Positions 169-63,700 of a stretch of 64,000 nucleotides of DNA are shown here, one piece after another (within the stretch, counting starts at the first letter, position 1; each line of letters opens with the position of its first letter). The DNA lies in contig CBDHCU010000001.1 in NCBI GenBank assembly GCA_965261325.1, forward strand, positions 191,200 to 255,199. Direction: 5' to 3'. The position numbers were made by a program, and so were the translations under genes. The stretch comes from Dehalococcoidia bacterium. GTDB taxonomy: Bacteria; Chloroflexota; Dehalococcoidia; Lucifugimonadales; CAJWER01. The notes below the pieces were generated by a model, which searched no databases, was not told the DNA's origin, and worked only from the letters and a program-made list of their open reading frames with translations.

Positions 169-433
169 GGTTTGAAACCCGCCCCTACAGCCGGGCACGC
201 AAACATCCCCCTCATCCCTTCGGCAAGTTCAGGGCAGGCTCCACCCCCCTCAAGACCGGGGATGGGTTCCCGCCTCCGCGGGAATGACGGCCATGCGCGC
301 GGGAATGACGGTTGTGGTGTGCAAGTTGTTGGCCCCGCTCGGCCCGGTTGGGCGGCGGGGCGGGTTCAGACCCAGATTTTGAACCGGCTGGGTCTGGGGA
401 TGCCGGCCTCGCGCATCTTGTCGAAGGGCCGCT

Positions 434-1741
434 TCATCCAGACGCTCTCGGCCTTGGGCGTGGTCCCGGGTTCGCGGGAGCGGCGGCGCTTGGGCGAAGT
501 TTTCTTCTGATAGACCTGGGGTATGCCGGGGCGTACTCCCAGATGTATTTGCCGTACGCGTCTGGGACCTCGCCTGAGATCCAGTAGCGGACTTCGTCGT
601 CTTCGTCGTTCTCCTTGTCTTTGCCGTGGAAGACGGCGGCTACCTCGTCGTATGCCTGGACGAACTTGTGGATTGGGTGGGACGGGTCGCGCTGGGCTTC
701 GGCGATCTTGCGGTCGATGTCGTAGCAGCCGCGGTGGTCGTTCGTGTCGTCTGCGTCGGCGGGGCCGGGGATGGGTTCCCGCCCCGTATCGAGTACGGGG
801 CAGGCTCTTCTCGGGAATGACGGAGCACCCTCACCCTCACCCCAGCCCTCTCCCGTCAAGGGAGAGGGGGACGGCGGGAGCCCGTCCTCATCCCCGCCGC
901 CCTGGATACCGGGTTCCGCCGGTATGACGGTCAGGTCTGCTTCGTCGGTGCTGGGGATGGGTTCCCGCTTTCGCGGGAATGACGATCCGTCGGGCGGGAA
1001 TGACCCTTCGACTGCGCTCAGGGCAGGCTCTTCGGCGGGGCTCAGGGCAGGCTCAACTGGAAGGGAGCCGGAGCGGGCGATCTCGTCGCGGGCTATGTGT
1101 CCGAGGAGCTCGCTGGCGGCATCGACCCTCTGGCGGGGCCTGAAGCCGCGGACTACGCCGTGCATGACGTGCATGAGGAAGCTGACGACGGTCTTGCCGT
1201 GGTCGGTGCTCCCGTGGACGATGCCCGTGACGCGGGGGTCGTGGGCGAGGGATGGGGCGGCGAGGGCCGAGGCGAGGTATTCGAGGGCCTCGTGGCGCGC
1301 GCGGGCGGTTTTGGCGCAGTCGGCGTCCGGCCGGGGATGGGTTCCCGTCGCCACGGGAATGACGGTGGTGTCGCCACGGGAACGACGGGTGGTGTCGCCA
1401 CTGGAACGACGGGTGGTGTCGCCACTGGAACGACGGGTGGTGTCGCCACTGGAACGACGGGTGGTGGTGTCGCGGGTGCGCTTGCGGAGTATGACGTGGT
1501 TGCATTCGAGGCCGGTGAGCTGGGCTATGTATTCGGAGACGAGCCCGGGAGCGATGGCGTGGACCTGCTCGGCGGCTTCGAGCCTGTGGCATACTTCGAA
1601 GCCGTCGTCGTTTAGCTTTCCCTCGATGACGTCGAGGTAGAAGCGGACGATGGTCTCGCCGTTGTTGGTCTCGCGGCGGACGATGTCCGCGAGTGTGGGC
1701 GGCTCGGACTGTTCGGTGTTGCGTTCTTTGTTATGGCTCAT
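434..1741 (-). CDS. IS-linked paralog P1, unknown function (C-terminal tail out of frame relative to P2/P3)
   Basis: 435-aa ORF. It is highly similar to 3464..4882 and 21715..23149 in its N-terminal, middle and C-terminal blocks. The G-run at 492-494 is one base shorter than in P2 and P3, so the conserved tail ...KRSRSREPGTTPKAESIW.KRPFDKMREAGIPRPSRFKIWV (ancestral stop at 366-368) is lost. Confidence 0.7.
   Translation of the reverse strand: MSHNKERNTEQSEPPTLADIVRRETNNGETIVRFYLDVIEGKLNDDGFEVCHRLEAAEQVHAIAPGLVSEYIAQLTGLECNHVILRKRTRDTTTRRSSGDTTRRSSGDTTRRSSGDTTRRSRGDTTVIPVATGTHPRPDADCAKTARARHEALEYLASALAAPSLAHDPRVTGIVHGSTDHGKTVVSFLMHVMHGVVRGFRPRQRVDAASELLGHIARDEIARSGSLPVEPALSPAEEPALSAVEGSFPPDGSSFPRKREPIPSTDEADLTVIPAEPGIQGGGDEDGLPPSPSPLTGEGWGEGEGAPSFPRRACPVLDTGREPIPGPADADDTNDHRGCYDIDRKIAEAQRDPSHPIHKFVQAYDEVAAVFHGKDKENDEDDEVRYWISGEVPDAYGKYIWEYAPAYPRSIRRKLRPSAAAPANPGPRPRPRASG
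1347..1468. repeat. 24-bp tandem repeat (about 5 units) inside P1, encoding TTRRSSGD octapeptides
   Basis: GTCGCCAC(G/T)GGAA(T/C)GACGG(G)TGGT is repeated head to tail. The unit is the right arm of an R1 hairpin (TTCCCGT CGCC ACGGGAA). Confidence 0.9.
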
Positions 1742-1748
1742 ACGTTCT

Positions 1749-1778
1749 ACTATGAGGGATCGGGTGGGGGTTTGTCAA
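1749..1778 (-). promoter_or_regulatory. Putative sigma70-type promoter of P1 (TTGACA, 18-nt spacer, CATAGT), start codon 7 nt after the -10
   Basis: Minus strand reads TTGACAaacccccacccgatccctCATAGTagaacgtATG. It is positionally homologous to the consensus promoter of P2. Confidence 0.5.
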
Positions 1779-1820
1779 GGGGTTGGACTTGCGATCTACA
1801 ACGACAGGGCGGGTTTAAAA

Positions 1821-3266
1821 CCATCTGCTCCAACTAATTGATAAAAAGAACCGTCCTTTCCTTTGGGTAGTCCTCCTTTGGATAGTATCAGGATAAGACT
1901 ACTCCAAAGGAGGGACAGAGCGAAATGTCCACCAGTACCGGGGACGATACAGCCACCATCGGGAGCATAGAGGAGTTTCTTCAGCAGTGTTTGAAGGACA
2001 TGGAGCCAGACCACAGTCTCAAGGGCCCTGGCAGGCCGCGCGTCCTGCCCGCAATGGCTCTGTGGGCAGGGCTGCTGGTCTGCGTCCTGAGAGGCTTCGG
2101 CAGCCAATTGGCGGTGTGGCGTCTTATCTCGGAACGCGGACTCTGGTTCTTCCCCCGATTCCCGGTTACAGACCAAGCGGTCTACAAGAGGCTCCATAGC
2201 GCGGGAACCAAGCCATTGGAGAGACTCTTCGAGCAGATCAGCGGCGTATTGGCACAACGATTGCAGGGTGTGGTAACGGAGAAGCTGGCGCCATTCGCCG
2301 AGGGCGTGGTGTGCATAGACGAGAGTACACTGGACGCCATGTCGAGAAGGCTTCCGCCTCTGAGAGAGATTCCCCAAGGCGATAGCCGTCTGCTCCCTGG
2401 CAAGCTGGCTGGCGTGTTCGACGTGAGAGGCCAGCAGTGGCGGACCGTCATGTTTCAGCCGGACCCACATCAGAACGAGAAGGTGTTGGCGCGGAAGTTG
2501 GTGGAAGACCTGCCAGCGGGAACACTGGTGGTCGCAGACTTGGGATACTTCGGCTTCGCCTGGTTCGACTGGCTCACGGACAGGGGTTACCACTGGCTGA
2601 GCAGGCTGAGAGCAAAGACCAGCTACAAGGTGATACATACCTTCTACCATCGGGGCGACGTCTTCGATGGCATCGTGTGGCTGGGAGCCCATCGCGCCGA
2701 CCGGGCCAAACACGCCGTTCGGCTGGTGACTTTCAGACAAGGCAATACGCTGCGCCGCTACATCACCAACGTTCGGGAGCCTCACACATTCCCGATTGCA
2801 TCCATGGCCGAGGTCTACGCTCGCAGGTGGGACATCGAGATGGCGCTCAAGTTGGTCAAGCAACACCTCAAGCTGCGTCTTCTGTGGTCCGCCAAGTTGG
2901 TGGTGATCCAGCAACAGATATGGGCGACGTTGATAATCTCGCAGATTCTTCAGTCGATGCGGCTTGAGATAGCCCACAGGGCCGGGGTGGACCCGTTCGA
3001 GGTGTCCATCGGCCTGCTGGTCGAGTATGCGCCACAGTATGCCTATGAAGGCAGGGACCCTGTGAAGATCTTCGTGGAGCGAGGGCGTGAGCTGGGCTTC
3101 ATTCGACCTTCCCGTAGAATGCTCATCCACGCCCCGAACATACCTGTCGAGGCAGTCCTGCCTGCGCCACCCGGACTGGCACTCATTCGCACCCCTCGAT
3201 ATGCCAACCGCAAGTGTCCCGGACCCGCTGCAAACATCTTGAGAGTGAATTAGTTGGAGCAGATGG
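1821..3266 (+). mobile_element. IS4-family insertion sequence, copy B (complete, 1446 bp)
   Basis: Perfect 19-bp terminal inverted repeats CCATCTGCTCCAACTAATT at 1821-1839 and 3248-3266 (reverse complement). It carries a single transposase ORF. Flanks are GGTTTAAAA (left) and GGTTTGAAA (right), consistent with a 9-bp target duplication. Confidence 0.9.
1925..3253 (+). CDS. IS4-family DDE transposase (442 aa)
   Basis: Candidate DDE residues lie in ...VVCIDEST..., ...LVVADLGYFGF... and ...YARRWDIEMALKLVK. The last segment fits the IS4 Y-(2)-R-(3)-E-(6)-K signature. It differs by 1 aa from the copy at 20106..21434. Confidence 0.9.
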   Translation: MSTSTGDDTATIGSIEEFLQQCLKDMEPDHSLKGPGRPRVLPAMALWAGLLVCVLRGFGSQLAVWRLISERGLWFFPRFPVTDQAVYKRLHSAGTKPLERLFEQISGVLAQRLQGVVTEKLAPFAEGVVCIDESTLDAMSRRLPPLREIPQGDSRLLPGKLAGVFDVRGQQWRTVMFQPDPHQNEKVLARKLVEDLPAGTLVVADLGYFGFAWFDWLTDRGYHWLSRLRAKTSYKVIHTFYHRGDVFDGIVWLGAHRADRAKHAVRLVTFRQGNTLRRYITNVREPHTFPIASMAEVYARRWDIEMALKLVKQHLKLRLLWSAKLVVIQQQIWATLIISQILQSMRLEIAHRAGVDPFEVSIGLLVEYAPQYAYEGRDPVKIFVERGRELGFIRPSRRMLIHAPNIPVEAVLPAPPGLALIRTPRYANRKCPGPAANILRVN

Positions 3267-3463
3267 GGTTTGAAACCCGCCCCTACAGCCGGGCACGCAA
3301 ACATCCCCCTCATCCCTTCGACAAGCTCAGGGCAGGCTCCGCCCCCCTCAAGACCGGGGATGGGTTCCCGCCTCCGCGGGAATGACGGCCATGCGCGCGG
3401 GAATGACGGTTGTGGTGTGCAAGTTGTTGGCCCCGCTCGGCCCGGTTGGGCGGCGGGGCGGGT

Positions 3464-4882
3464 TCAGACCCAGATTTTGAACCGGCTGGGTCTGGGGATG
3501 CCGGCCTCGCGCATCTTGTCGAAGGGCCGCTTCATCCAGATGCTCTCGGCCTTGGGCGTAGTCCCGGGTTCGCGGGAGCGGCTTCGCTTGGGGCGAAGTT
3601 TTCTTCTGATCGACCTGGGGTATGCCGGGGCGTACTCCCAGATGTATTTGCCGTAGGCGTCTGGGACCTCGCCTGAGATCCAGTAGCGGACTTCGTCGTC
3701 TTCGTCGTTCTCCTTGTCTTTGCCGTGGAAGACGGCGGCTACCTCGTCGTATGCCTGGACGAACTTGTGGATGGGGTGGGCCGGGTCGCGCTGGGCTTCG
3801 GCGATCTTGCGGTCTATGTCGTAGCAGCGGCGCTGTGAGTCAGTGGGCTCCGGGTCGTCTTCACCCTCACCCCAGCCCTCTCCCGTCAAGGGAGAGGGGG
3901 ACGGCGGGAGCCCGCCCTCATCCCCGCCGCCCTGGAAAGCCGGTGTGACGGTCAGGTCTGCTTCGTCGGTGCTGGGGATGGGTTCCCGCCCCGTATCGAG
4001 TACGGGGCAGGCTCTTCGCGGGAATGACGGAGCACCCTCACCCTCACCCCAGCCCTCTCCCGTCAAGGGAGAGGGGGACGGCGGGAGCCCGCCCTCATCC
4101 CCGCCGCCCTGGAAAGCCGGTGTGACGGTCAGGTCTGCTTCGTCGGTGCCGGGGATGGGTTCCCGCCTTCGCGGGAATGACGATGAAGCTGCCGGGAATG
4201 ACGGAGCACCCTCACCCTCTCCCGTCGAGGGAGAGGGGGGTACGGAGCCGGAGCGGGCGATCTCGTCGCGGGCTATGTGGCCGAGGAGCTCGCTGGCGGC
4301 ATCGACCCTCTGGCGGGGCCTGAAGCCGCGGACTACGCCGTGCATGACGTGCATGAGGAAGCTGACGACGGTCTTGCCGTGGTCGGTGCTCTCGTGGACG
4401 ATGCCGGCTACGCGCGGGTCGACGGCGAGGGATGGGGCGGCGAGGGCGGATGCGAGGTATTCGAGGGCTTCGTGGCGCGCGCGGGCGGTTTTGGCGCAGT
4501 CGGCGTCCGGCCGGGGATGGGTTCCCGTCGCCACGGGAATGACGGTGGTGTCGCCACGGGAACGACGGGTGGTGTCGTCACGGGAACGACGGGTGGCGTC
4601 GTCACGGGAATGACGGGTGGTGTCGCGGGTGCGCTTGCGGAGTATGACGTGGTTGCATTCGAGGCCGGTGAGCTGGGCTATGTATTCGGAGACGAGCCCG
4701 GGAGCGATGGCGTGGATCTGCTCGGCGGCTTCGAGCCTGTGGCAGACTTCGAAGCCTTCGTCGTTTAGCTTTCCCTCGATGACGTCGAGGTAGAAGCGGA
4801 CGATGGTCTCGCCGTTGTTGGTCTCTCGGCGGACGATGTCCGCTAGTGTGGGTGGCTCGGACTGTTCGGTGTTGTCGTACAT
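3464..4882 (-). CDS. IS-linked paralog P2, unknown function (the only apparently intact copy, 472 aa)
   Basis: I start it at ATG 4882 (MYDNTEQSEPPTLADIV...), directly behind a consensus promoter. The track ORF extends to 5191 only because it reads through MITE sequence. The N-terminal, middle and C-terminal blocks are conserved with P1 and P3. Confidence 0.75.
   Translation of the reverse strand: MYDNTEQSEPPTLADIVRRETNNGETIVRFYLDVIEGKLNDEGFEVCHRLEAAEQIHAIAPGLVSEYIAQLTGLECNHVILRKRTRDTTRHSRDDATRRSRDDTTRRSRGDTTVIPVATGTHPRPDADCAKTARARHEALEYLASALAAPSLAVDPRVAGIVHESTDHGKTVVSFLMHVMHGVVRGFRPRQRVDAASELLGHIARDEIARSGSVPPSPSTGEGEGAPSFPAASSSFPRRREPIPGTDEADLTVTPAFQGGGDEGGLPPSPSPLTGEGWGEGEGAPSFPRRACPVLDTGREPIPSTDEADLTVTPAFQGGGDEGGLPPSPSPLTGEGWGEGEDDPEPTDSQRRCYDIDRKIAEAQRDPAHPIHKFVQAYDEVAAVFHGKDKENDEDDEVRYWISGEVPDAYGKYIWEYAPAYPRSIRRKLRPKRSRSREPGTTPKAESIWMKRPFDKMREAGIPRPSRFKIWV
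3861..4165. repeat. In-frame tandem duplication (period 177 bp = 59 codons) inside the P2 linker
   Basis: CCCAGCCCTCTCCCGTCAAGGGAGAGGGGGACGGCGGGAGCCCGCCCTCATCCCCGCCGCCCTGGAAAGCCGGTGTGACGGTCAGGTCTGCTTCGTCGGTGC.GGGGATGGGTTCCCGCC occurs from 3871 and again from 4048. Confidence 0.85.
4527..4622. repeat. 24-bp tandem repeat (4 units) inside P2
   Basis: Same unit as 1347..1468 but a different copy number and sequence variants (TTRHSRDD/ATRRSRDD/TTRRSRGD). Confidence 0.85.
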
Positions 4883-4917: not shown

Positions 4918-5000
4918 GTGGGATTTTCAGCCAAGAGGGCACGGAGGGGGAAGTTTTGAGTTTTGGGGGAGAGTTTCGGGAGAGAGGAGTTACGCAAGTT

Positions 5001-5100
5001 ATACCAATTTGGCGTGATGCCGCCGTATATGTGCGGCCAGGGAGTGGGTTCCCGCCTTCGCGGGAATGACGGCCAATTTGGCGTGATGCCGCCATATAGG
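5001..5100 (+). repeat. MITE1-related rearranged copy with short-loop R1 core
   Basis: ATACCAATTTGGCGTGATGCCGCCGTATATGTGCGGCCAGGGAGTGGGTTCCCGCCTTCGCGGGAATGACGG is followed by a direct repeat of CCAATTTGGCGTGATGCCGCCATATA. Confidence 0.7.
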
Positions 5101-5111
5101 GGCTGAAAGAG

Positions 5112-5225
5112 CAGGGCCTTTCCAAAGTCCGTTCGTGGTGAGCCTGTCGAACCACAATTGGGGCCTTCGACAAGCTCAGGCCGAACGGCAAGGTACGACC
5201 CTATCTCAACAATGGAAAGGCCCTG
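5112..5225 (+). mobile_element. MITE4 copy a (114 bp, 13-bp perfect TIR CAGGGCCTTTCCA)
   Basis: Near-identical to 30951..31063 (inverted), 41670..41783 and 53014..53127. Confidence 0.85.
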
Positions 5226-8399: not shown

Positions 8400-8550
8400 A
8401 TGAAACCTCCACATAGTAACAGGCTAGCCGCAACCCCGAATATTAGTCAACCATGTTCTATCCAAAGTTTTGACTTTGTTCGAACTCTCGACCCCGGCCG
8501 GTCCGAGCTCCAGCTTCCTAATCTGAAGATTCCCTATTTTGTTGTGTGAG

Positions 8551-8694
8551 CCCAGATCCACCACCTAATTTGGACGGATGGCGTGACGGACTGCCTCTGA
8601 GGCTATGGCTGTGCACCTTGCCGGGGATGGGTTCCCGCCCCCGACTGCTCGGGGGCAGGCTCTTCGCGGGAATGACGGAGGTGGGGGATCTGGG
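8551..8694 (+). mobile_element. MITE2 copy a (144 bp, TIR CCCAGATCC(C)CCACC)
   Basis: Near-identical to 23200..23343 and 58168..58311. It carries a long-form R1 core with inner hairpin CCCCCGACTGCTCGGGGG. Flanked by TGAG on both sides. Confidence 0.85.
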
Positions 8695-8750
8695 TGAGTT
8701 TCTCACGTTGAATCCGTGCTGCCGTTCCGATACAGTACGATACAGTACAG

Positions 8751-16019: not shown

Positions 16020-16400
16020 TCAGTCGTTCCCGCGAAAAGAGACCTTTGCGTTACCCCTCTCCCTCGACGGGACCTTGACGGGAGAGGGCTGGGTTGGGGG
16101 TGAAGAGTCGGCTTCCGCAAGCTGGGCCCCATATTCCGGCGCCTGGATTCCGGCCCCGTATCGGGGTACGGGACATGCTTGCGCCGGAATCACCATGGCC
16201 CTGCGAAGGCCACATAAGGGAATGAAATGGGCGCCATCTTTTGGCAAGGTCGAGGCCGACCCCGCCCCAGGTCCCTCGCTGAGGCCTCGGGACGACATGG
16301 CGGGGTGACCGGGCGTTGCTTTCGCAGGAATGATCTGGGTTATGCAAGGGTCTCCGAAGGCGGGAACCCACCCGCTGCAAGGCGCGCCGGCCATGACCAG
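16020..16400. repeat. Pile of degenerate palindromic repeat units (R1 variants, R6 GGGAGAGGG-type, R5 ATGGCC..GGCCACATAAGGGAATGAAATGG)
   Basis: Read directly. It includes a reversed half-R1 (GTCGTTCCCGCGAAAAGAGAC), an R1 variant with arms ATTCCGGC/GCCGGAAT, and R5 at 16194..16229. Confidence 0.75.
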
Positions 16401-19715: not shown

Positions 19716-19914
19716 GAGGCCGGAGCCGGAGCAGCGATGTGGGGAGGGCCTGGACCAGGCGACTATCTCCAGAAGTGCTTCGACAAGCTCAGCACGAGCG
19801 GGACTATACAAGGATTGTTCGCCCTGAGCCTGTCGAAGGGCAGTTCTCCGCCGATACAGGTGACTGTGAGATAACCCCCTAGGCGTCTGGAATCGGCCCA
19901 CTGCCTTCGGTGCT

Positions 19915-20039: not shown

Positions 20040-20092
20040 GTCCCGGTGTCAGTCGGCCCGCCTAGCCGGGTGGGCAGAGGGCGGGTTTGAAA

Positions 20093-21538
20093 CCATCTGC
20101 TCCAACTAATTCACTCTCAAGATGTTTGCAGCGGGTCCGGGACACTTGCGGTTGGCATATCGAGGGGTGCGAATGAGTGCCAGTCCGGGTGGCGCAGGCA
20201 GGACTGCCTCGACAGGTATGTTCGGGGCGTGGATGAGCATTCTACGGGAAGGTCGAATGAAGCCCAGCTCACGCCCTCGCTCCACGAAGATCTTCACAGG
20301 GTCCCTGCCTTCATAGGCATACTGTGGCGCATACTCGACCAGCAGGCCGATGGACACCTCGAACGGGTCCACCCCGGCCCTGTGGGCTATCTCAAGCCGC
20401 ATCGACTGAAGAATCTGCGAGATTATCAACGTCGCCCATATCTGTTGCTGGATCACCACCAACTTGGCGGACCACAGAAGACGCAGCTTGAGGTGTTGCT
20501 TGACCAACTTGAGCGCCATCTCGATGTCCCACCTGCGAGCGTAGACCTCGGCCATGGATGCAATCGGGAATGTGTGAGGCTCCCGAACGTTGGTGATGTA
20601 GCGGCGCAGCGTATTGCCTTGTCTGAAAGTCACCAGCCGAACGGCGTGTTTGGCCCGGTCGGCGCGATGGGCTCCCAGCCACACGAGGCCATCGAAGACG
20701 TCGCCCCGATGGTAGAAGGTATGTATCACCTTGTAGCTGGTCTTTGCTCTCAGCCTGCTCAGCCAGTGGTAACCCCTGTCCGTGAGCCAGTCGAACCAGG
20801 CGAAGCCGAAGTATCCCAAGTCTGCGACCACCAGTGTTCCCGCTGGCAGGTCTTCCACCAACTTCCGCGCCAACACCTTCTCGTTCTGATGTGGGTCCGG
20901 CTGAAACATGACGGTCCGCCACTGCTGGCCTCTCACGTCGAACACGCCAGCCAGCTTGCCAGGGAGCAGACGGCTATCGCCTTGGGGAATCTCTCTCAGA
21001 GGCGGAAGCCTTCTCGACATGGCGTCCAGTGTACTCTCGTCTATGCACACCACGCCCTCGGCGAATGGCGCCAGCTTCTCCGTTACCACACCCTGCAATC
21101 GTTGTGCCAATACGCCGCTGATCTGCTCGAAGAGTCTCTCCAATGGCTTGGTTCCCGCGCTATGGAGCCTCTTGTAGACCGCTTGGTCTGTAACCGGGAA
21201 TCGGGGGAAGAACCAGAGTCCGCGTTCCGAGATAAGACGCCACACCGCCAATTGGCTGCCGAAGCCTCTCAGGACGCAGACCAGCAGCCCTGCCCACAGA
21301 GCCATTGCGGGCAGGACGCGCGGCCTGCCAGGGCCCTTGAGACTGTGGTCTGGCTCCATGTCCTTCAAACACTGCTGAAGAAACTCCTCTATGCTCCCGA
21401 TGGTGGCTGTATCGTCCCCGGTACTGGTGGACATTTCGCTCTGTCCCTCCTTTGGAGTAGTCTTATCCTGATACTATCCAAAGGAGGACTACCCAAAGGA
21501 AAGGACGGTTCTTTTTATCAATTAGTTGGAGCAGATGG
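20093..21538 (-). mobile_element. IS4-family insertion sequence, copy C (complete, 1446 bp, inverted relative to copies A/B)
   Basis: Same 19-bp TIRs as copy B. Both flanks read TTTGAAACC on the + strand (= TTTCAAACC on the IS sense strand), consistent with a 9-bp target duplication inside GGGCGGGTTTGAAACCCGCCC. Confidence 0.9.
20106..21434 (-). CDS. IS4-family DDE transposase (442 aa)
   Basis: Differs from 1925..3253 by one residue (DGLVWLG versus DGIVWLG). Confidence 0.9.
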   Translation of the reverse strand: MSTSTGDDTATIGSIEEFLQQCLKDMEPDHSLKGPGRPRVLPAMALWAGLLVCVLRGFGSQLAVWRLISERGLWFFPRFPVTDQAVYKRLHSAGTKPLERLFEQISGVLAQRLQGVVTEKLAPFAEGVVCIDESTLDAMSRRLPPLREIPQGDSRLLPGKLAGVFDVRGQQWRTVMFQPDPHQNEKVLARKLVEDLPAGTLVVADLGYFGFAWFDWLTDRGYHWLSRLRAKTSYKVIHTFYHRGDVFDGLVWLGAHRADRAKHAVRLVTFRQGNTLRRYITNVREPHTFPIASMAEVYARRWDIEMALKLVKQHLKLRLLWSAKLVVIQQQIWATLIISQILQSMRLEIAHRAGVDPFEVSIGLLVEYAPQYAYEGRDPVKIFVERGRELGFIRPSRRMLIHAPNIPVEAVLPAPPGLALIRTPRYANRKCPGPAANILRVN

Positions 21539-21714
21539 GGTTTGAAACCCGCCCCTACAGGCGGGAACGCAAACATCCCCCTCATCCCTTCGACAAGCTC
21601 AGGGCAGGCTCCACCTTCTCCCGCCAGGGGAGAAGGGGCAAGAGGCCGCCCGGCGATCTGAGCTGGCTGACATTGTGTTGGCCCCGCTTGGCCCGGTTGG
21701 ACGGCGGGGCGGGT

Positions 21715-23149
21715 TCAGACCCAGATTTTGAACCGGCTGGGTCTGGGGATGCCGGCCTCGCGCATCTTGTCGAAGGGCCGCTTTATCCAGATGCTCTCGG
21801 CCTTGGGCGTAGTCCCGGGTTCGCGGGAGCGGCGGCGCTTGGGGCGAAGTCGTCTTCGGATCGACTTGGGATATGCCGGGGCGTACTCCCAGATGTATTT
21901 GCCGTACGCGTCTGGGACCTCGCCGGAGATCCAGTAGCGGACTTCGTCGTCTTCGTCGTTCTCCTTGTCTTCGCCATGGAAGGCGGCGGCCACCTCGTCG
22001 TATGCCTGGACGAACTTGTGGATTGGGTGGGCCGGGTCGCGCTGGGCTTCTGCGATTTTGCGGTCGATGTCGTAGCAGCCGCGGTCGGGGTCGGTGAGCT
22101 CCGGGTCGTCTTCTTCGGCGGGGCCGGGGATGGGGATGGATTCCCGCGAAGGCGGGAATGACGATTCGGTTGCGGTTGCAGTGTGCGGATCGTCTGCGTT
22201 GGCGGTGCTGGGGATGGGTTCCCGCCCCGTATCGAGTACGGGGCAGGCTCTTCGCGGGAATGACGGAGCACCCTCACCCTCACCCCAGCCCTCTCCCGTC
22301 AAGGGAGAGGGGGACGGCGGGAGCCCGTCCTCATCCCCGCCGCCCTGGAAAGCCGGTGTGACGGTCAGGTCTGCTTCGGCGGGGGCGGGGATGGGTTCCC
22401 GCTTTCGCGGGAATGACGGTGCGGCCTCACCCTCACCCTCACCCTCTCCCGTCGAGGGAGAGGGGGGTACGGAGCCGGAGCGGGCTAGCTCGTCGCGGGC
22501 TATGTGTCCGAGGGAGCTCGCTGGCGGCATCGACCCTCTGGCGGGGCCTGAAGCCGCGGACTACGCCGTGCATGACGTGGAGCAGGAAGCTGACGACGGT
22601 CTTGCCGTGGTCGGTGCTCCCGTGGACGATGCCGGCGACGCGGGGGTCGTGGGCAAGGGATGGGGTGGCGAGGGCCGAGGCGAGGTATTCGAGGGCTTCG
22701 TGGCGCGCACGGGCGGTTTTGGCGCAGTCGGCGTCCGACCGGGGATGGGTTCCCGTCGCCACGGGAATGACGGTGGTGTCGCCACGGGAACGACGGGTGG
22801 TGTCGCCACGGGAACTACCGGTGGTGTCGTCACGGGAACTACCGGTGGTGTCGTCACGGGAACTACCGGTGGTGTCGCGGGTGCGCTTGCGGAGTATGGC
22901 GTGGTTGCATTCGAGGCCGGTGAGCTGGGCTATGTATTCGGAGACGAGGCCGGGTGCGATGGCGTGGATCTGCTCGGCGGCTTCGAGCCTGTGGCAGACT
23001 TCGAAGCCGTCGTCGTTTAGCTTTCCCTCGATGACGTCGAGGTAGAAGCGGACGATGGTCTCGCCGTTGTTGGTTTCGCGGCGGACGATGTCCGCTAGTG
23101 TGGGTGGCTCGGACTGTTCGGTGTTGCGTCGTTTGTTCTTATGGCTCAT
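21715..23149 (-). pseudogene. IS-linked paralog P3, frameshifted mid-gene
   Basis: Two overlapping ORFs (22439..23149 and 21715..22530) together reproduce the P1/P2 architecture. An extra G in the run at 22512-22514 (CCGAGGGAGCTC versus CCGAGGAGCTC in P1 and P2) breaks the frame at ...AASEL|LGHIARDE. Confidence 0.75.
22755..22873. repeat. 24-bp tandem repeat (about 5 units) inside P3
   Basis: The units encode TTGSSRDD/TTGSSRGD/TTRRSRGD. Same position as in P1 and P2 but with different unit variants. Confidence 0.85.
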
Positions 23150-23186: not shown

Positions 23187-23199
23187 GGGGGATTTTTCA

Positions 23200-23343
23200 C
23201 CCAGATCCACCACCTAATTTGGACGGATGGCGTGACGGACTGCCTCTGAGGCTATGGCTGTGCACCTTGCCGGGGATGGGTTCCCGCCCCCGACTGCTCG
23301 GGGGCAGGCTCTTCGCGGGAATGACGGCGGTGGGGGATTTGGG
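23200..23343 (+). mobile_element. MITE2 copy b (144 bp)
   Basis: Near-identical to 8551..8694 and 58168..58311. Confidence 0.85.
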
Positions 23344-23357
23344 TCCCCTGCCTCTCC

Positions 23358-31071: not shown

Positions 31072-31192
31072 GGTAGTATCGATTCAAGGTAGTTTTGGCG
31101 AACGTCCAGCCCCCCGCCCCTCTGGGTTCCCGCTTTCGCGGGAATGACGGCAATCCGAGGGTTCTGTCATATTTAGATTGAAGCAGTAGTAG
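31072..31192 (+). mobile_element. MITE3 copy b (short form, R1 core with a TTTC loop)
   Basis: GTAGTATCGATTCAAGGTAGTTTTGGCGAACGTCCAGCC...GGGTTCCCGCTTTCGCGGGAATGACGGCAATCCGAGGGTTCTGTCATATTTAGATTGAAGCAGTAGTAG. Compare 57883..58026. Confidence 0.8.
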
Positions 31193-34050: not shown

Positions 34051-34264
34051 CCCCTGTCGTCCGTTCAACCGCTGTGAGGTTTAATCTCAAAACTATCTGA
34101 ATCGCGGAGAACTGCCCTTCGACCCTTCGACAAGCTCAGGGGAGCCAGGCTCAGGGCGAACGATCTCTTGTATAGCTTCGTCGGTGCTGAACTTGTCGAA
34201 GCATCTTTTTGAGGATAGCCTCTAGTGATTGACTTGGCGCCAGCCCGGTCTGGCAGCTTGGTTT

Positions 34265-35254: not shown

Positions 35255-35388
35255 GAGGAACCCTCCCTTTGCGGTCGCTCGACTCCACACTGGAACTGCC
35301 CCAGCGGAGATGGTGCGGAGCATAGATTCGGCGCGCGAGAGTGTCAACTCGCATCCGGTTTCGGGTCCCCGAGTTAGGCCCGATGATT

Positions 35389-35476
35389 CCTGCCCCGTAT
35401 CGAGTACGGGGCAGGCTTTTCGCGGGAATGACGGCAATCCGAGGGTTCTGTCATATTTAGATTGAAGCAGTACTAG
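35389..35476 (+). repeat. MITE3 copy c (right part only)
   Basis: CCCCGTATCGAGTACGGGGCAGGCTTTTCGCGGGAATGACGGCAATCCGAGGGTTCTGTCATATTTAGATTGAAGCAGTACTAG. The left TIR is absent. Confidence 0.7.
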
Positions 35477-37405: not shown

Positions 37406-37674
37406 TTCATGCTCCTAACGCTCCGAAGAGCGATCATGCAATCGGTATGAGTAGATAATTCGCGCCCTGGCACTTGGAACCGTTCCATAGTTCATAACGT
37501 CCGTGCCGTCGGATTGGTTGGCATGGCATCGTGGGCGCGGCATCTCTTTTTCCATGCACAGGCTGGGTCTGTGACGCCGGAACACGTCGAGGGAAAGGTG
37601 TACGAATTCCGATGGTTCTCTCAACACGGACAGGTGGGGAGTACCATGTCCCCCCCCTCGAGTTTGAACAGCTA

Positions 37675-37800
37675 ATACCAAGTCACCGTGATGCCGCCGT
37701 ATATGTGGGGCCAGGGAGTGGGTTTCCCGCCCCCGACTACTCGGGGGCAGGCTCTTCGCGGGAATGACGGCTTTACGGCGCGTTCAAAATGAATTGGTAT
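37675..37800 (+). mobile_element. MITE1 copy a (126 bp, ends ATACCAA..TTGGTAT)
   Basis: Near-identical to 42368..42493, 53223..53348 and 54961..55085. Its R1 inner hairpin is the CCCCCGACTACTCGGGGG variant. Confidence 0.85.
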
Positions 37801-41669: not shown

Positions 41670-41783
41670 CAGGGCCTTTCCAAAGTCCGTTCGTGGTGAG
41701 CCTGTCGAACCACAATTGGGCCTTCGACAAGCTCAGGCCGAACGGCAAGGTACGCCCCTAATCTCAACAATGGAAAGGCCCTG
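41670..41783 (+). mobile_element. MITE4 copy c with 10-bp target-site duplication CGCTGACATC
   Basis: The direct repeat CGCTGACATC occurs at 41660-41669 and 41784-41793. The left copy contains the TGA stop of the preceding gene. Confidence 0.9.
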
Positions 41784-42307: not shown

Positions 42308-42367
42308 TCGAAGTACCGGGATGAGCGAGCTACCGCGAAGGCCCCCTTTACCTGAGGGGGCCTTCTT

Positions 42368-42493
42368 ATACCAAGTCACCGTGATGCCGCCGTATATGTG
42401 CGGCCAGGGAGTGGGTTCCCGCCCCGTATTGAGTACGGGGCAGGCTCTTCGCGGGAATGACGGCTTTACGGCGCGCTCAAAATGAATTGGTAT
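42368..42493 (+). mobile_element. MITE1 copy b
   Basis: See 37675..37800. Located between the Lrp-family gene and aspS. Confidence 0.85.
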
Positions 42494-45478: not shown

Positions 45479-45607
45479 ATGGCCTAACGGAGGCCACATA
45501 AGGGAATGGAAATGGCTCTGCACTCGTTGCCCCGAGTTGATGGCAGTGGCCGGGGATGGGTTCCCGCCCCGTATCGAGTACGGGGCAGGCTCTCCGCGGG
45601 AATGACG
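45479..45607 (+). repeat. R5 hairpin unit plus long-form R1 unit
   Basis: ATGGCCTAACGGAGGCCACATAAGGGAATGGAAATGG (compare 16194 and 63491), then GGGGATGGGTTCCCGCCCCGTATCGAGTACGGGGCAGGCTCTCCGCGGGAATGACGG. Confidence 0.8.
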
Positions 45608-45648
45608 GATGAAGGGCGAGACGTACGCTTTTTTCAGAGGAATGACGA

Positions 45649-53013: not shown

Positions 53014-53127
53014 ACCCCTGAGGCAGGGCCTTTCCAAAGTCCGTTCGTGGTGAGCCTGTCGAACCACAATTGGGGCCTTCGACAAGCTCAGGCCGAACGG
53101 CAAGGTACGACCCTATCTCAACAATGG
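53014..53127 (+). mobile_element. MITE4 copy d with 9-bp target-site duplication CCCCTGAGG
   Basis: CCCCTGAGG occurs immediately before (53005-53013) and after (53128-53136) the element. Confidence 0.9.
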
Positions 53128-53222
53128 AAAGGCCCTGCCCCTGAGGGGCACGAATTGACATGCTGACATGGCGCGGGCTATCGTTGATTAGCTGCCAACA
53201 GGCACTAGCAGGCAGCCAACTA

Positions 53223-53348
53223 ATACCAAGTCACCGTGATGCCGCCGTATATGTGCGGTCAGGGAGTGGGTTCCCGCCCCGTATCGCGTACGGGGTAGGC
53301 TCTTCGCGGGAATGACGGCTTTACGGCGCGCTCAAAATGAATTGGTAT
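53223..53348 (+). mobile_element. MITE1 copy c
   Basis: See 37675..37800. It ends 16 nt before the start of the NmrA-family gene. Confidence 0.85.
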
Positions 53349-54322: not shown

Positions 54323-54949
54323 ATGAACAGCCACCCAAATCACGGCGACTCGAGGCCATTGAGGGTCTTGGCGATATCCGGCAGCCTTCGTAAGGCGTCA
54401 ACGAATACAGGCCTTCTACGGGCCGGGCAGGAGGTCGCGCCTGCTGGAATGGAGATATCTATCTTCAACATAGCAGGTCTCCCCTTCTACGACAGCGACA
54501 TCGAGGCCGAGGGCGATCCTGCTCCGGTGGCGGCGCTCAAGGCAGCCATAAGGGATGCCGACGGGGTGATTTTCGCTACGCCCGAGTACAACTGGGGCAC
54601 CTCAGGGGCGCTTAAGAATGCCGTCGACTGGGCTTCTCGCGACCGCAAACAGGGTTCGCTGATGGGCAAGCCTGCGACAGTCATTGGTGCAGGTGGGAGA
54701 GCGGGGACTGCGCGGGCTCAGCTGCAGCTTCAGGAATCTCTGGCGGAAACCGGCTCATTGGTAATGGTCAAGCCGGGAGTGCTGGTTCAGGCATTCGCGC
54801 CTCCTCGGTTCGACTCTCAAGGAAACCTGATCGATCGGGAGACCAGGGATATTCTTCGCGCGCACCTCGCGAAGTTTGCAGAGTGGACGCTGCGGCTCGC
54901 GCGTCCTGGTGAGTTTGTGCGGTATGAGTGCGAGATGGACATAGTGTGA
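54323..54949 (+). CDS. NADPH-dependent FMN reductase family protein
   Basis: VLAISGSLRKASTNTGLLRA... and ...FATPEYNWGTSGALKNAVDW... Confidence 0.85.
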   Translation: MNSHPNHGDSRPLRVLAISGSLRKASTNTGLLRAGQEVAPAGMEISIFNIAGLPFYDSDIEAEGDPAPVAALKAAIRDADGVIFATPEYNWGTSGALKNAVDWASRDRKQGSLMGKPATVIGAGGRAGTARAQLQLQESLAETGSLVMVKPGVLVQAFAPPRFDSQGNLIDRETRDILRAHLAKFAEWTLRLARPGEFVRYECEMDIV

Positions 54950-54960
54950 TCTGCTGTGTA

Positions 54961-55085
54961 ATACCAAGTCACCGTGATGCCGCCGTATATGTGCGGCCAG
55001 GGAGTGGGTTCCCGCCCGTATCGAGTACGGGGCAGGCTCTTCGCGGGAATGACGGCTTTACGGCGCGCTCAAAATGAATTGGTAT
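54961..55085 (+). mobile_element. MITE1 copy d
   Basis: See 37675..37800. One base shorter in the R1 inner hairpin. Confidence 0.85.
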
Positions 55086-56724: not shown

Positions 56725-56951
56725 AGCTTATCTCGAAGAGATCGGCCACGGTCGGGCCACTCCGCTGCCGCACAATCACACCGCAGTCCGCGGCCTCGCG
56801 CGTCAAGCTATGGGGCAAGAGCAAGGGGAAGCGCGTTCGCCCTGAGCCTGTCGAAGGGCAGTCCTACGCCAATGCTGATGGACTGGAGGTAGTCTCCCGG
56901 CGCCAGCCGGGCCATTACGGAAATCCGACTCTGCTATAATCATATGTCTGT

Positions 56952-57041
56952 GGAGAGGTGGCCGAGCGGTTTAAGGCGCCGGTCTCGAAAACCGGTATGG
57001 GAGCAATCTCATCGTGGGTTCGAATCCCACCCTCTCCGCCA
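56952..57041 (+). tRNA. tRNA-Ser (CGA)
   Basis: Acceptor GGAGAGG/CCTCTCC, anticodon stem CCGGT/ACCGG with loop CTCGAAA, long variable arm, T-loop TTCGAAT, encoded CCA. Confidence 0.9.
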
Positions 57042-57042
57042 G

Positions 57043-57132
57043 GGAGAGATGCCAGAGTGGCCGATTGGGCGCGACTGGAAATCGCGTGTCGCTGCAAGGC
57101 GACCGTGGGTTCGAATCCCACTCTCTCCGCCA
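57043..57132 (+). tRNA. tRNA-Ser (GGA)
   Basis: Acceptor GGAGAGA/TCTCTCC, anticodon stem CGCGA/TCGCG with loop CTGGAAA, long variable arm, encoded CCA. Separated from the previous tRNA by 1 nt. Confidence 0.9.
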
Positions 57133-57882: not shown

Positions 57883-58026
57883 CTAGTATCGATTCAAGGT
57901 AGTTTTGGCGAACGTCCAGCCCCCCGCCCCTCTGGGTTCCCGCCCCGTATCGAGTACGGGGCAGGCTTTTCGCGGGAATGACGGCAATCCGAGGGTTCTG
58001 TCATATTTAGATTGAAGCAGTACTAG
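57883..58026 (+). mobile_element. MITE3 copy a (144 bp, long-form R1 core)
   Basis: Imperfect TIR ACTAGTATCGATTCAA / TTGAAGCAGTACTAGT (13 of 16). The interior equals copy b except for the R1 loop cassette. Confidence 0.8.
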
Positions 58027-58167
58027 TGGTCAACCCCTGATGGCACATCTCCCTTACTATACCTATGCCGACGAGCCAATCTTGGCGGATTCTTCAGCTA
58101 TGGATTGCCCCCGCCGCGTTGGCCGCCCCATGACAGTCGAACGCAGGCGGTTTCCGTAGCTGTAGGG

Positions 58168-58311
58168 CCCAGATCCACCACCTAATTTGGACGGATGGCG
58201 TGACGGACTGCCTCTGAGGCTATGGCTGTGCATCTTGCCGGGGATGGGTTCCCGCCCCCGACTGCTCGGGGGCAGGCTCTTCGCGGGAATGACGGAGGTG
58301 GGGGATTTGGG
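58168..58311 (+). mobile_element. MITE2 copy c (144 bp)
   Basis: Near-identical to 8551..8694. Flanked by TAGGG on both sides. Confidence 0.85.
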
Positions 58312-58389
58312 TAGGGACGGCTGGCTTGTCATCCGCCGCCTACGGCCTTAGAATCATCGCAGCACAGGAATTTGGCACTGGAGGGCATC

Positions 58390-62054: not shown

Positions 62055-62437
62055 TTGGGGATGACTAACGCTCCCGAGAAGCTTTCGCTTGCCAAGGATC
62101 ATCTTGACAGAGTCCTTGCGGCGTGGGACGAGCCTACCGATTGGAAAGACTTGTCGGTATACGGGTTTCTTGCATTGAAGCGGCGGTGGATGCTGCTTCA
62201 ATGCACATCGGATCGCCGAGAAAACGGGATCACCTCACCAGAGAGCGTGCTGCCAAGGAACTGCATGATAGGTTTGGCCTGCCAGACGTCTCAGGTCTCC
62301 TGAACGAGCTCAATGACGCCCGGAAATCGGAACTCTATGGAGACGTCCCTGCGCCTGATCTGGACGCTGAAGATGTTGCATCAAGTATTGAGGCGTACTT
62401 AAACGCAGTAGAGCGGTTACTGACAACAGCTCCGTAG
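62055..62437 (+). pseudogene. HEPN-like domain protein, frameshifted
   Basis: ORF 62055.. (MTNAPEKLSLAKDHLDRVLAAWDEPTDWKDLSVYGF) continues in the -1 frame (62123..62437) as CIEAAVDAASMHIGSPRKRDHLTRERAAKELHDRFG...ARKSELYGD... The join lies near the GGGTTT tract at ~62163-62170. Confidence 0.55.
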
Positions 62438-62449
62438 GACTTGTGACGG

Positions 62450-63190
62450 ATGAATACACTGTTGGAAGTCGAACACGAAAGCAGCGGCGGATCACTCGAA
62501 AGGGCTATCCTAAGGTGGCCCACCAAGAGATCGAAGGAGTGGACGCTTGATCTGTTGGGCCGGGCGCCTGGCGACAAGAACATCACCGCTATAGTTGCAG
62601 TGGGGTCCACGACTCGGCCCGGTGTGCCAAGTACAGATCTCGACTTGATTGCGATTTGCGAAGACAGACTTGCCTTCAAGAGGAGGAACAGGGCTACGTT
62701 GGAGATCGACATCCGCATATACCGTTCTTCCGATGTCGAGGATTCCATTGAAAAGGGCCATGACATGCTTGGCTGGGCAGTCAAGTTTGGCAAGGTGCTG
62801 TTCCAGCGCGATGGCTATTGGGATGGGGTAGTTCGCCGTTGGCGGGAAAGACTTCCCTTCCCTGACATCGATTCCGCGTACGCCAGGGCATCGGACTCTT
62901 ACCGGTGGCTTTCCAGTTTCCACAGTGTGGGCGACACCGATGCGGCCTACGAGCATGCACTCTCTTACCTAACACACCTGGCTCGGGCGGCCCTTGTCGA
63001 ACGTGAGGTATACCCGGCTTCCAGGCCGGAACTGCCGGGACAGATGCGGGAAGTTTTTGCAGATACGCCTGCCATTGCCGTATGGCTCGAACGCCTGCTT
63101 CGCGGCCAACCCGCTCGACAAGAGATGGACGAGCTGATAGGCATCCGACTGCACGAGCAGAGGCTCCTCGTCGCATCTAACCCGGTGTGA
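62450..63190 (+). CDS. Nucleotidyltransferase (MNT-like) domain protein with C-terminal helical extension
   Basis: The ...AIVAVGSTTRPGVPSTDLDLIAI... block fits the minimal nucleotidyltransferase G-S-x(n)-D-x-D pattern. 246 aa. Directly downstream of the HEPN-like gene. Confidence 0.65.
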   Translation: MNTLLEVEHESSGGSLERAILRWPTKRSKEWTLDLLGRAPGDKNITAIVAVGSTTRPGVPSTDLDLIAICEDRLAFKRRNRATLEIDIRIYRSSDVEDSIEKGHDMLGWAVKFGKVLFQRDGYWDGVVRRWRERLPFPDIDSAYARASDSYRWLSSFHSVGDTDAAYEHALSYLTHLARAALVEREVYPASRPELPGQMREVFADTPAIAVWLERLLRGQPARQEMDELIGIRLHEQRLLVASNPV

Positions 63191-63395
63191 TCGGTCTCGA
63201 CCGGCTCTTACATTAGGCAGTGTTGATTCTCTCGTAAAAAGTCTGTGCAGGTCGAATTAGAACAACCGTACCCTTGCCTGGGTACAATATACAGTCTCTG
63301 TTCCGTGTACTACCCCAACATACGGTAGCGCTCACATGTGCTAAAGCGCTGGAACTTCCTCAAAACGGGTTTTTACGAGGGAATCAGTGTTGACA

Positions 63396-63700
63396 TTTGT
63401 GTCATTCCGAGCGCAGCGAGGAATCTAAGAACCTTGCACAAAGGCTACCACCTAGATTCTTCACTCCGCTGCGCTACGTTCAGAATCACTATGGCCTTGC
63501 GCAGGCCACATAAGGGGATGAAAATGGCGTGGCCTACCCCATCGTCACTCCCGCGAAGGCGGGAGTCCAGGGCGACTGGGCTCCGTGTCAGGTACAGAGC
63601 AGGCTCCAAGCCACCTGCCGGGGATGGGTTCCCGCCCCCGACTGCTCGGGGGCAGGCTCTTCGCGGGAATGACGGGTGTGGCTGTCTGCTGTCTATTTTC
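63396..63700. repeat. Pile of unrelated palindromic repeat units (R7 GTCATTCCGAGCGCAGCGAGGAATC type, R5, R1 variants)
   Basis: Read directly: R5 at 63491..63527, a TCACTCCCGCGAAGGCGGGAGTCC hairpin at ~63547-63570, and a long-form R1 at ~63619-63675. Confidence 0.75.

Follow-up and report, generated by a model that had tools for sequence, protein, structure and literature searches.

Uniform strand polarity of R1, a hairpin repeat and probable Ssn-related motif, in a Dehalococcoidia genome

Introduction

R1 is a hairpin repeat that recurs throughout a 64,000-nt stretch of the genome of a Dehalococcoidia bacterium (Chloroflexota; GenBank assembly GCA_965261325.1, contig CBDHCU010000001.1, positions 191,200 to 255,199 of the forward strand). 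We call this whole 64-kb stretch the window, and number positions from its first letter. In the window R1 is a passenger: it lies inside three families of miniature inverted-repeat transposable elements (MITEs), in frame within a multi-copy family of open reading frames (ORFs), and once on its own. An earlier note on this DNA pointed out that all canonical R1 copies face the same way. Is the polarity real, how far does it extend, and what might maintain it? We find that the polarity is real, regional, and independent of both transcription and carrier, and that R1 itself very probably represents, in Chloroflexota, the Ssn-related motif (SRM) that in Neisseria goes by the names NTS and dRS3.

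Results

Orientation of R1 in the window

The 9-mer GGGAATGAC has 31 exact matches in the window, all on the + strand; dinucleotide-preserving shuffles give an expectation of 0.63 and a largest value of 3. One match (59887) lies inside a gene, has no left arm, and falls outside the 12-mer that the earlier note had counted. The remaining 30 are genuine R1 units: 11 are short hairpins whose loop is 4 nt, 14 are long forms that contain a nested hairpin, and 5 are additional right arms. The reverse orientation, GTCATTCCC, has no occurrence on the + strand of the window, and a one-mismatch search with GCGGGAATGAC adds just two reversed pieces, at 16023 and 63544. The count of 30 right arms on the + strand and no canonical reverse copy, as first claimed, is thus reproduced exactly. 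So is the division into clustered and dispersed units: 17 lie in or at three paralog loci, a further one (5062) beside locus 2 makes 18, and 12 are dispersed (8668, 23317, 31140, 35424, 37760, 42453, 45598, 53308, 55045, 57974, 58285 and 63665). The dispersed copies have unique flanks, sit in three MITE families or alone, lie among genes on both strands, and share one polarity, all as the note had it. By our own arithmetic, uniform polarity at 12-13 independent sites has a two-sided binomial p of about 2-5e-4. The polarity of R1 in the window is confirmed, and is not due to chance.

A few relatives of R1 do face the other way. In what follows, sense denotes the strand of the motif that an Ssn nuclease would recognize, which for R1 is the - strand. 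A pile of degenerate units at 16020..16375, to which no strand can be given, contains a reversed half, GTCGTTCCCGCG, at 16023 and a reversed 3' half, GAAGGCGGGAACCCA, at about 16355, along with a forward GGATTCCGGC...GCCGGAATCAC variant at about 16146-16193. The two halves are real and were already known; the claim that nothing else is reversed does not stand, as two variant hairpins near the right end had been overlooked. These are an NTS-like hairpin, CGTCACTCCCGCGAAGGCGGGAGTCCAG, at 63543..63570, and an imperfect variant, GTCATTCCGAGCGCAGCGAGGAATC (GTCATTCCGAGCG... at about 63401), at 63399..63425, both with sense on the + strand and so reversed relative to R1. An NTSvar-like hairpin at approximately 901..928, with CGTCATACCGGCGGAACCCGGTATCC on the - strand, has R1-like polarity. 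MITE4, which lacks R1, does occur in both orientations as stated earlier, forward at 5111..5225, 41670-41783 and 53023-53137 and reversed at 30951-31064; with just three forward copies and one reversed, it is a weak control.

Identity of R1

What kind of repeat is R1? Its 7-8 bp hairpin, (A)TTCCCGC / GCGGGAA(T), is flanked asymmetrically, by CGTCA 5' and by C 3'. All copies begin CGTCATTCCC, every full copy has GTCA 5' and C 3' of the palindrome, and the 7-bp stem folds as DNA at -8.4 kcal/mol. The reverse complement, CGTCATTCCCGCGAAGGCGGGAACCCAT, agrees with Neisseria NTS at 26 of 28 positions. The NTS consensus, CGTCATTCCCGCGMAVGCGGGAATCYRG, is an oriented form of the old dRS3 repeat, and the wider class to which it belongs is the SRM (Chenal et al. 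2025, PMC11893778). Eight hits have three or fewer mismatches to the 28-nt consensus, where none is expected; seven window copies of R1 reach this level, and in all seven the sense is on the - strand; the short R1 at 31125-31150 is the best match, with one mismatch. Five copies fit the published degenerate SRM pattern, and the long-loop copies fit it outside the loop only. The positions reported as critical (PMC11893778) are conserved in R1: they are the palindrome's three 5' neighbors and the C that directly follows it.

The Ssn nucleases and their motifs were first described in 2025. SsnA, a 94-aa single-domain GIY-YIG protein, binds NTS solely as single-stranded DNA (ssDNA), with no binding of duplex DNA, RNA or the complementary strand; it recognizes the CGTCATTCCCGCG strand, and the cut falls a few bases 5' of the motif (PMC11893778). 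The match to this system bears out the suggestion of the earlier note that R1 belongs to a class of hairpins read as ssDNA on one strand. Since just one strand of the motif is a substrate, the orientation of R1 can matter to the cell.

A search for Ssn-like proteins returned 8000, several named ones among them coming from Chloroflexota or Dehalococcoidia metagenome-assembled genomes (MAGs), and Ssn-like proteins are very common in Chloroflexota MAGs. Ssn-like GIY-YIG genes adjoin R1 in three of the loci we collected, L052, L004 (where the gene is flanked on both sides) and L119, a Dehalococcoidia MAG locus in which the gene lies amid nine R1 units. The 95-aa L119 gene (200-900) is frameshifted, which may be a long-read error. 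On either side of it, 5-7 R1 left-half units (CCGTCATTCCCGC...) follow one another in a direct array, with a single complete hairpin as the last member.

The long form

More than half of the R1 copies carry a loop insertion of 24-28 nt that contains a second, covarying hairpin and an invariant GCAGGCTCTTC, giving the layout GGTTCCCGC-CCCGTATCGAGTACGGGG-CAGGCTCTTC-GCGGGAATGAC. This long form is outside the published SRM pattern, in which the loop is 0-5 nt. A scan of representative genomes with the 25-mer GGGGCAGGCTYTTCGCGGGAATGAC finds at least 68 loci. Among the matches listed, the hosts are Chloroflexota, Beta-, Gamma- and Zetaproteobacteria, Acidobacteriota, Planctomycetota, cyanobacteria, Ignavibacteriales and Binatia, with genomes of 35-72% G+C. 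Most of these are MAGs, so some of the lineage labels may reflect mis-binning; Ramlibacter sp. WS9, which has the 25-mer, is an isolate.

In 30 distinct versions of the long form the outer stem is invariant, and the inner stem shows compensatory changes across phyla (GTA/TAC, GGA/TCC, CGC/GCG, TGC/GCA). Covariation extends over three pairs, with 27 double-change cells, a value reached by none of 500 shuffles. We note that GGGGCAGGCTYTTCGCGGGAATGAC is identical across many labelled lineages (L076-L143) while the adjacent inner stem covaries. Either the 25-mer has spread horizontally, then, or the GCAGGCTCTTC bulge is under very strong sequence constraint. If R1 is an SRM, as we think very probable, it is a new structural variant of that motif in a new setting, the MITEs and ORF linkers of Chloroflexota.

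MITE carriers

All of the R1-bearing elements that follow are given as they lie on the + strand. Family A is 146 bp long, with terminal inverted repeats (TIRs) CCCAGATCCACCACCT / AGGTGGGGGATCTGGG (also given as AGGTGGGGGATTTGGG) and target site duplications (TSDs) such as TGAG and TAGGG. Its copies are at 8550..8695 (TSD TGAG, long R1 8630-8678), at 23199..23344 between paralog 3 and pheS (long R1 23279-23327), and at 58167..58312 (TSD TAGGG, long R1 58247-58295); the right-hand part of another, with a long R1 at 63627-63675, is at 63616..63681. Family B is 139 bp long and reads TACCAAG...TTGGTA. Four copies, each with a long R1 and a clean 3-bp TSD, lie at 37662..37800 (TAA, R1 37721-37770), 42355..42493 (TTA, R1 42414-42463), 53210..53348 (TAA, R1 53269-53318) and 54947..55085 (TAA, R1 55007-55055), and repeat comparison places a variant with the left module on both sides of a short R1 (5047-5072) at 5000..5125. 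Family C, with TIR-type ends TAGTAnnGnTTCAA, is found at 31074..31192 (short R1 31125-31150) and 57884..58026 (long R1 57935-57984), and in part at 35385..35476, between two - strand genes (long R1 35385-35434). The solo copy, a long R1, is at 45559..45608.

R1 is internal, one per MITE. TIRs are present in all three families and clean TSDs in A and B, and TSDs of the R1 carriers are 3-5 bp. Such TIRs and TSDs mean that the carriers were pasted by DDE-type, cut-and-paste transposition, and not as single strands. The loop variants of R1 are shuffled among the MITE families, and R1 therefore behaves as an exchangeable module; it does not move on its own in this genome.

Two further kinds of element deserve mention here. 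A 125-bp element at 63754-63878 has family A TIRs (CCCAGATTCCCCACCT ... AGGTGGGGGATTTGGGG) and no R1 inside, making it a natural control for the dependence of the orientation lock on R1; L134 has one related copy, which is anti-oriented. Modules with TTCGACAAGCTCAGG(C/G)... and CACCCTCACCCC...CTCTCCC-GTCAAG-GGAGAGGGGG palindromes lie at the MITE4 sites and at 19776-19862, 34167-34203 and 56835-56880, and like R1 appear as spurious peptides in many MAG annotations.

R1 in the paralog ORFs

The three paralog loci are on the - strand: ORF 1 (434..1741, 435 aa) and ORF 2 (3464..4882, 472 aa) have intact frames, and locus 3 (21715..23149) is split into ORFs at 21715-22530 and 22439-23149. R1 and other modules lie in frame within the ORFs, where they are translated as linker peptides (VIPA..G, SFPRKREPIP). 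These R1 copies are antisense, and the coding strand of the ORF is always the Ssn-sense strand of R1. Just 3' of ORF 1 is a short hairpin, GGTTCCCGC-CTCC-GCGGGAATGACGG, on the + strand at 265..290 (Ssn-sense on the - strand), as is every R1 unit at these loci, followed by an extra right arm, a half unit, at 299..311. Inside ORF 1 are a long form (774..823), a short hairpin with an extra right arm (960..1004), and a variant with the compensated stem CCCGT/ACGGG, which runs into 24-nt right-arm tandem repeats (ACGGGAACGAC) in frame (1340..1460). ORF 2 repeats this plan, with a short hairpin and extra right arm on its 3' side (3363..3409) and, internally, a long form (3981..4030), a short hairpin with extra right arm (4158..4204), and the CCCGT/ACGGG variant with tandem right-arm repeats, the last of which is a canonical right arm (4520..4616). 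Locus 3 contains a short hairpin, GGATTCCCGC-GAAG-GCGGGAATGAC (22138..22162), a long form (22217..22266), another short hairpin (22394..22419), and the variant with its 24-nt tandem right-arm repeats (22748..22890). The tandem repeats derived from the R1 right arm, GGTGGTGTCGCCACGGGAACGACG, occupy 1363-1460, 4543-4620 and 22771-22890; their copy number differs between paralogs, reaching seven in a relative, P0012, and they are translated as TTRRSSGD-type peptides.

R1 orientation in other genomes

Does the polarity extend beyond the window? As a relative we used the MAG CBDCTY01 (4.3 Mb, in contigs of 3.33 and 1.01 Mb), which carries the same MITE families A and B, and sampled 21 loci of 8 kb each, with 2-5 R1 copies per 8 kb. 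All R1 copies are on one strand in 19 of the 21 loci, and 40 of 42 neighboring pairs agree. Taken with the window, the polarity is 89 to 2. Four further 21-kb loci, found with the variant CGTCGTTCCCGCG, have ratios of 8:0, 6:2, 6:0 and 6:0; three are on a 4.33-Mb contig of another related assembly, and the fourth, L147, comes from a different assembly, in a contig of 90.7 kb. Polarity is also uniform in several other Chloroflexota loci. Regional polarity of SRMs is not reported in PMC11893778, and our literature searches met no report of it.

Replication in the window and elsewhere

GC skew in the window is positive in 28 of 31 overlapping windows, and the cumulative skew climbs almost without a break. 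Among the non-repeat genes, coding-strand skew is 0.054 on the + strand and 0.007 on the - strand (p = 0.004). The + strand has 72% of the coding bases, together with pheS, pheT and all three tRNAs. By the usual rule, the skew, coding bases, tRNAs and pheST make the + strand the leading strand. If so, the cleavable - strand, which is the C-rich one, is the leading-strand template, and the lagging-strand template carries the inert complement. The window is consistent with a link to replication, a link that is plausible and unproven.

Across the loci, 10 housekeeping units are co-oriented with the + form of R1 (pheST, five tRNA loci, dnaX, ileS, efp and infC-rplT) and 4 are anti-oriented. Pfam scans of 60 genes in the related loci, made to find housekeeping genes, added just rpsF and dnaE to the tRNAs. 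Masked, oriented GC skew is +0.023 in unrelated genomes (p = 0.03) and +0.041 in viral contigs (p = 0.04). Both the tally and the masked skew are weak support for a replication link. GC skew per 8-kb or 21-kb locus is too noisy to serve as a proxy for replication direction, and was pooled instead. A tandem tRNA-Ser(CGA)/tRNA-Ser(GGA) pair occurs both in the window (56952-57132) and in L116 (1045-1225), where the flanking protein genes are not orthologous; R1 near the two pairs points in opposite directions relative to the tRNAs.

The ORF family and its neighbors

Members of the paralog ORF family are 330-520 aa long, with three conserved helical segments and linkers filled with in-frame R1, NTSvar-like and other modules. 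There are at least 188 relatives, all in related MAGs, and about 18 of those listed are on contigs presumed to come from the source genome; members also occur in L077, L083, L086, L088, L099, L112, L139 and L145-L148. The family has no match in Pfam, PHROGs or NCBIfam, and the AlphaFold model (pLDDT 44, all-helical) is too poor for a structure search. We set aside a weak tblastn likeness to the Ssn N-terminus (E = 2), given that the tyrosines of GIY-YIG are missing and the model is helical.

An IS4-type insertion sequence (IS; 1800..3290, + strand), with a DDE_Tnp_1 transposase at 1925-3253, lies directly against the 3' end of paralog 2; positions 1-190 are a partial copy, and a reversed copy at about 20040-21560 abuts paralog 3 at the same site. 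The element thus abuts the 3' end of each of the three loci, in one case reversed, and this site may be a preferred target. In L146 and L148, too, the paralog has a DDE transposase gene next to it, and L144 is another locus noted in connection with this element. An identical IS4 transposase is found inside an integrative conjugative element on a 381-kb contig, in 21 kb without any R1.

Discussion

R1 and known systems

How does R1 compare with repeats already known? With SRM/NTS it shares the core CGTCATTCCCGCG-MAV-GCGGGAA-C, the hairpin and its asymmetric flanks, a copy number in the hundreds, and mosaics with other repeat modules, as in neisserial intergenic mosaic elements (NIMEs); motif-flanked Ssn-like genes also occur in the R1-related loci L004, L052 and L119. 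The palindrome is 8 bp in SRM/NTS and 7 bp in R1, and CYRG follows it in the former where CCCAT follows in R1. R1 differs too in residing inside MITEs with TIRs and TSDs and in frame in ORFs, and in its strictly regional polarity. In N. meningitidis only 2% of NTS lie within genes (PMC11893778).

The earlier note had read the polarity as a sign of behavior like that of repetitive extragenic palindromes (REPs) with their REP-associated tyrosine transposases (RAYTs), or of IS200/IS605. That the polarity is a real, non-random and non-transcriptional phenomenon holds up; the comparison with these two systems does not, given the TIRs and TSDs, the missing GTAG head, and the failure to find a Y1 gene in the window or in 21 related loci. 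REPs, with the bacterial interspersed mosaic elements (BIMEs) and REP doublets (REPINs) built from them, are like R1 short, high-copy extragenic hairpins that form mosaics, and in both the REP/RAYT and SRM systems a small nuclease recognizes the hairpin as ssDNA and has its own gene flanked by hairpins. R1 however is without a GTAG (or GTGG) head, and the partner enzyme of SRMs is of the GIY-YIG type, not HUH. Inverted doublets of canonical R1, of the REPIN type, are absent from the window. The note had proposed a search for a RAYT or IS200/IS605 Y1 transposase; tblastn with reconstructed IS200 TnpA and YafM query sequences found none in the window or in the 21 CBDCTY01 loci. A weak RAYT-like match at 7270-7377 of L109 (IRYIHLNPIRAGIV...PWSS), about 2 kb from a long R1 in an unrelated MAG, is the sole Y1-type signal in the DNA examined. 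IS200/IS605 and the palindrome-associated transposable elements (PATEs) derived from it resemble R1 in having a strand-specific hairpin signal and an orientation bias relative to the chromosome strand. The R1 carriers differ in having TIRs and TSDs, R1 is internal in them and not subterminal at both ends, its recognized strand is apparently on the leading-strand template, and neither TnpA nor TnpB was found. Identification of R1 as a REP or an IS200/IS605-derived PATE is ruled out by the CGTCATTCCC start, the absence of inverted doublets, and the TIRs and TSDs.

Other parallels are partial. Classical ISs of the DDE type can, like the R1 carriers, be oriented relative to the fork (Gomez et al. 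2014, PMC3971601); that bias is partial and family-specific, whereas here several families share the polarity of one internal module nearly without exception. KOPS and Chi are 8-mers that occur across coding sequence and are read on duplex DNA by translocases. Their near-absolute strand bias along the replichore is like that of R1, which is a hairpin of 26-50 nt on mobile elements. Rickettsia palindromic elements (RPEs), reportedly described by Ogata and coworkers in 2000 as lying in frame in protein-coding genes, add inter-domain peptide segments much as R1 does in ORF linkers; the host of R1 is one multi-copy ORF family, with several modules and tandem half-units in the same linkers. We rejected R1 as an attC site, a CRISPR repeat or a replichore word of the KOPS/Chi type, and also as an intrinsic terminator or Rfam RNA, since it has no T-run, no terminator call and a gene-independent orientation.

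What maintains the polarity?

The cause that we rank first, and put forward tentatively, is replication-linked selection on the one cleavable strand. The copies that survive would mainly be those whose cleavable strand serves as the leading-strand template. Only the inert complement would then be present on the parental strand that lagging-strand synthesis exposes, and uniform polarity would result over any unidirectionally replicated stretch, whatever the carrier or the direction of the genes. The lock holds in all three carrier families, whose TIRs differ and among which clean TSDs occur (TAA, TTA, TAA and TAA; TGAG; TAGGG); as these TIR-distinct families share it and loop variants are shuffled among them, selection would be on the motif and not on the chemistry of insertion. 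If the + strand is leading, the recognized strand is on the leading-strand template, an arrangement opposite to that of an IS608-like route and the one that avoidance of self-cleavage predicts. It is possible, if less than likely, that target hairpins are confined to one strand, which would spare the cell any exposure of its own cut sites on the lagging-strand template; such a polarity would be strong enough to orient several unrelated MITE families. The logic would be comparable to that of Chi and KOPS, there imposed by an ssDNA endonuclease. As a corollary, the long form would make up an SRM subclass in its own right, spreading horizontally and paired with an Ssn of its own.

A good deal weighs against replication-linked selection. 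One would think that orientation should switch only at an origin and a terminus, which allow just two switches. On contig_2 of CBDCTY01, R1 is on the + strand at 0.28-0.33 Mb, - at 0.90-1.51, + at 1.62, - at 1.72, + at 1.86 and - at 2.14-3.18, and contig_1 adds another switch, so that the switches exceed the replication expectation. Pooled gene-level GC skew in the CBDCTY01 loci has no association with R1 orientation (r = -0.006, 95% confidence interval -0.025 to +0.013), where the same association in the window is +0.023. GC3 in these loci leans the opposite way, the skew of three neighboring loci at 0.28-0.33 Mb is coherent and has the wrong sign, and the four extra 21-kb loci lie around zero (+0.016, +0.023, -0.026 and -0.012). 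The strand-skewed 7-mers of the window do not transfer to the relative (251 versus 253), a result that is uninformative. Among the housekeeping units, rpsF, dnaE and two tRNA pairs are anti-oriented to R1. In Neisseria, NTS occurs on both sides of genes. In other genomes (IMG/VR contigs) the hairpin is often found as inverted doublets 40-150 bp apart, and an Ssn-bearing cell can therefore tolerate both orientations. Finally, no ssn gene (cd10448 GIY-YIG) was found in the window or in the 21 + 4 sampled loci of related genomes; 19% of SRM-rich genomes are without one (PMC11893778).

Might the polarity have a more mundane origin? That a few events were multiplied by segmental duplication is scarcely credible. 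It is true that 18 of the 30 units are in three paralog loci, two of them in tandem with an IS between; but the 12-13 dispersed copies have unique flanks and their own TSDs, neighboring pairs agree in 40 of 42 cases in 21 independent loci of another genome, and 31 matches stand against 0.63 expected. An orientation that tracks local transcription, with R1 acting in RNA or as a promoter or terminator module, is very improbable, although the window alone might suggest it: for 10 of the 12 dispersed copies, the next feature on the 3' side is a protein gene or tRNA that points the same way, R1 is in most divergent intergenic regions, and the right end of family B, TGGTATAAT, resembles, in our own reading, an extended -10 element. 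In the related genome however the gene on the 3' side of R1 is co-oriented in only 32 of 52 cases, and the occupied intergenic regions comprise 13 tandem co-oriented, 11 tandem anti-oriented, 10 divergent and 8 convergent ones, as one expects if, in keeping with the earlier note, the lock does not follow transcription. The copy at 35424 lies between two - strand genes, and 16 copies are antisense inside ORFs. A simple scan of R1 gave no T-run and no promoter or terminator call, and an Rfam scan of the window gave only three tRNAs at the gathering score, with no match to R1. RNA, moreover, is not bound by SsnA (PMC11893778).

Three further explanations take the regional polarity at face value. 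It may, though this seems unlikely, be unlinked to present replication, and reflect either an older arrangement broken up by inversions or Ssn action on incoming ssDNA, with selection for recombination-sized tracts in which one strand has no cut sites; the window would then be part of a single block. The six or more orientation switches on the 3.3-Mb contig, the block lengths of about 0.1-0.6 Mb, true switches within 3 kb in L088 and L112, and the lack of a GC-skew association in relatives all fit such a history; IS copies in both orientations could drive inversions, and SsnA is known to act on transforming ssDNA (PMC11893778). Inversions flip skew along with repeats, however, so that an old replication pattern should still track skew, and it does not; the housekeeping tally of 10 to 4 and the window data lean to replication, and competence is not known for the lineage. 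Nor is any process known that would set orientation across 100 kb independently of replication. R1 might instead inherit the polarity of carriers whose DDE transposases have a replisome-coupled insertion bias, for example through the beta sliding clamp, a proposal that we find improbable. The carriers do have TIRs and TSDs, and the DDE families IS5a, ISL3, IS3 and IS30 show replication-related orientation bias, which the authors credit to the insertion mechanism and not to selection (PMC3971601). Yet in that survey the biases are statistical, not 89 to 2, and none was seen outside Firmicutes, Proteobacteria and Actinobacteria; here three TIR-unrelated families, a solo copy and the ORF copies share the polarity, which for three independently biased families is a 1-in-4 coincidence by our own arithmetic, and the block switches and GC skew are as problematic as for replication-linked selection. 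More doubtful again is the mechanism first suggested, by which R1 units are excised and pasted as ssDNA at the fork by a RAYT, an IS200/IS605-type or an Ssn-type enzyme. The hairpin is of a class recognized as ssDNA, the authors of the SRM paper liken NTS-ssnA-NTS to an IS and to IS200/IS605 and REP/BIME (PMC11893778), the ssn gene of L119 has direct arrays of R1 half-units on either side, the MITE families exchange loop variants, and the replication orientation bias of IS200/IS605 is well documented. But each family B copy has TIRs and a clean 3-bp TSD and is not a product of peel-and-paste transposition, no Y1 transposase was found in the window or the 21 CBDCTY01 loci and R1 has no GTAG head, and if the + strand is leading, the recognized strand is on the leading-strand template, which is wrong for an IS608-like route. 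To our knowledge, no strand-transfer activity has been described for Ssn.

Implications

In practice, the "VIPAxAG / SFPRxRE" repeats that appear as spurious or in-frame peptides in MAG annotations are Ssn-type motifs, and should be annotated as such. If regional polarity turns out to be unrelated to replication, it points to some as yet unexplained process acting on repeat orientation over about 100 kb. If on the other hand SRM polarity follows the fork, Ssn would be shown to reach genomic ssDNA in vivo, and the polarity would be a first genome-wide sign of what carrying such a nuclease costs. SRM orientation would then mark the direction of replication where GC skew is weak, and a small passenger module would dictate which transposable-element insertions survive.

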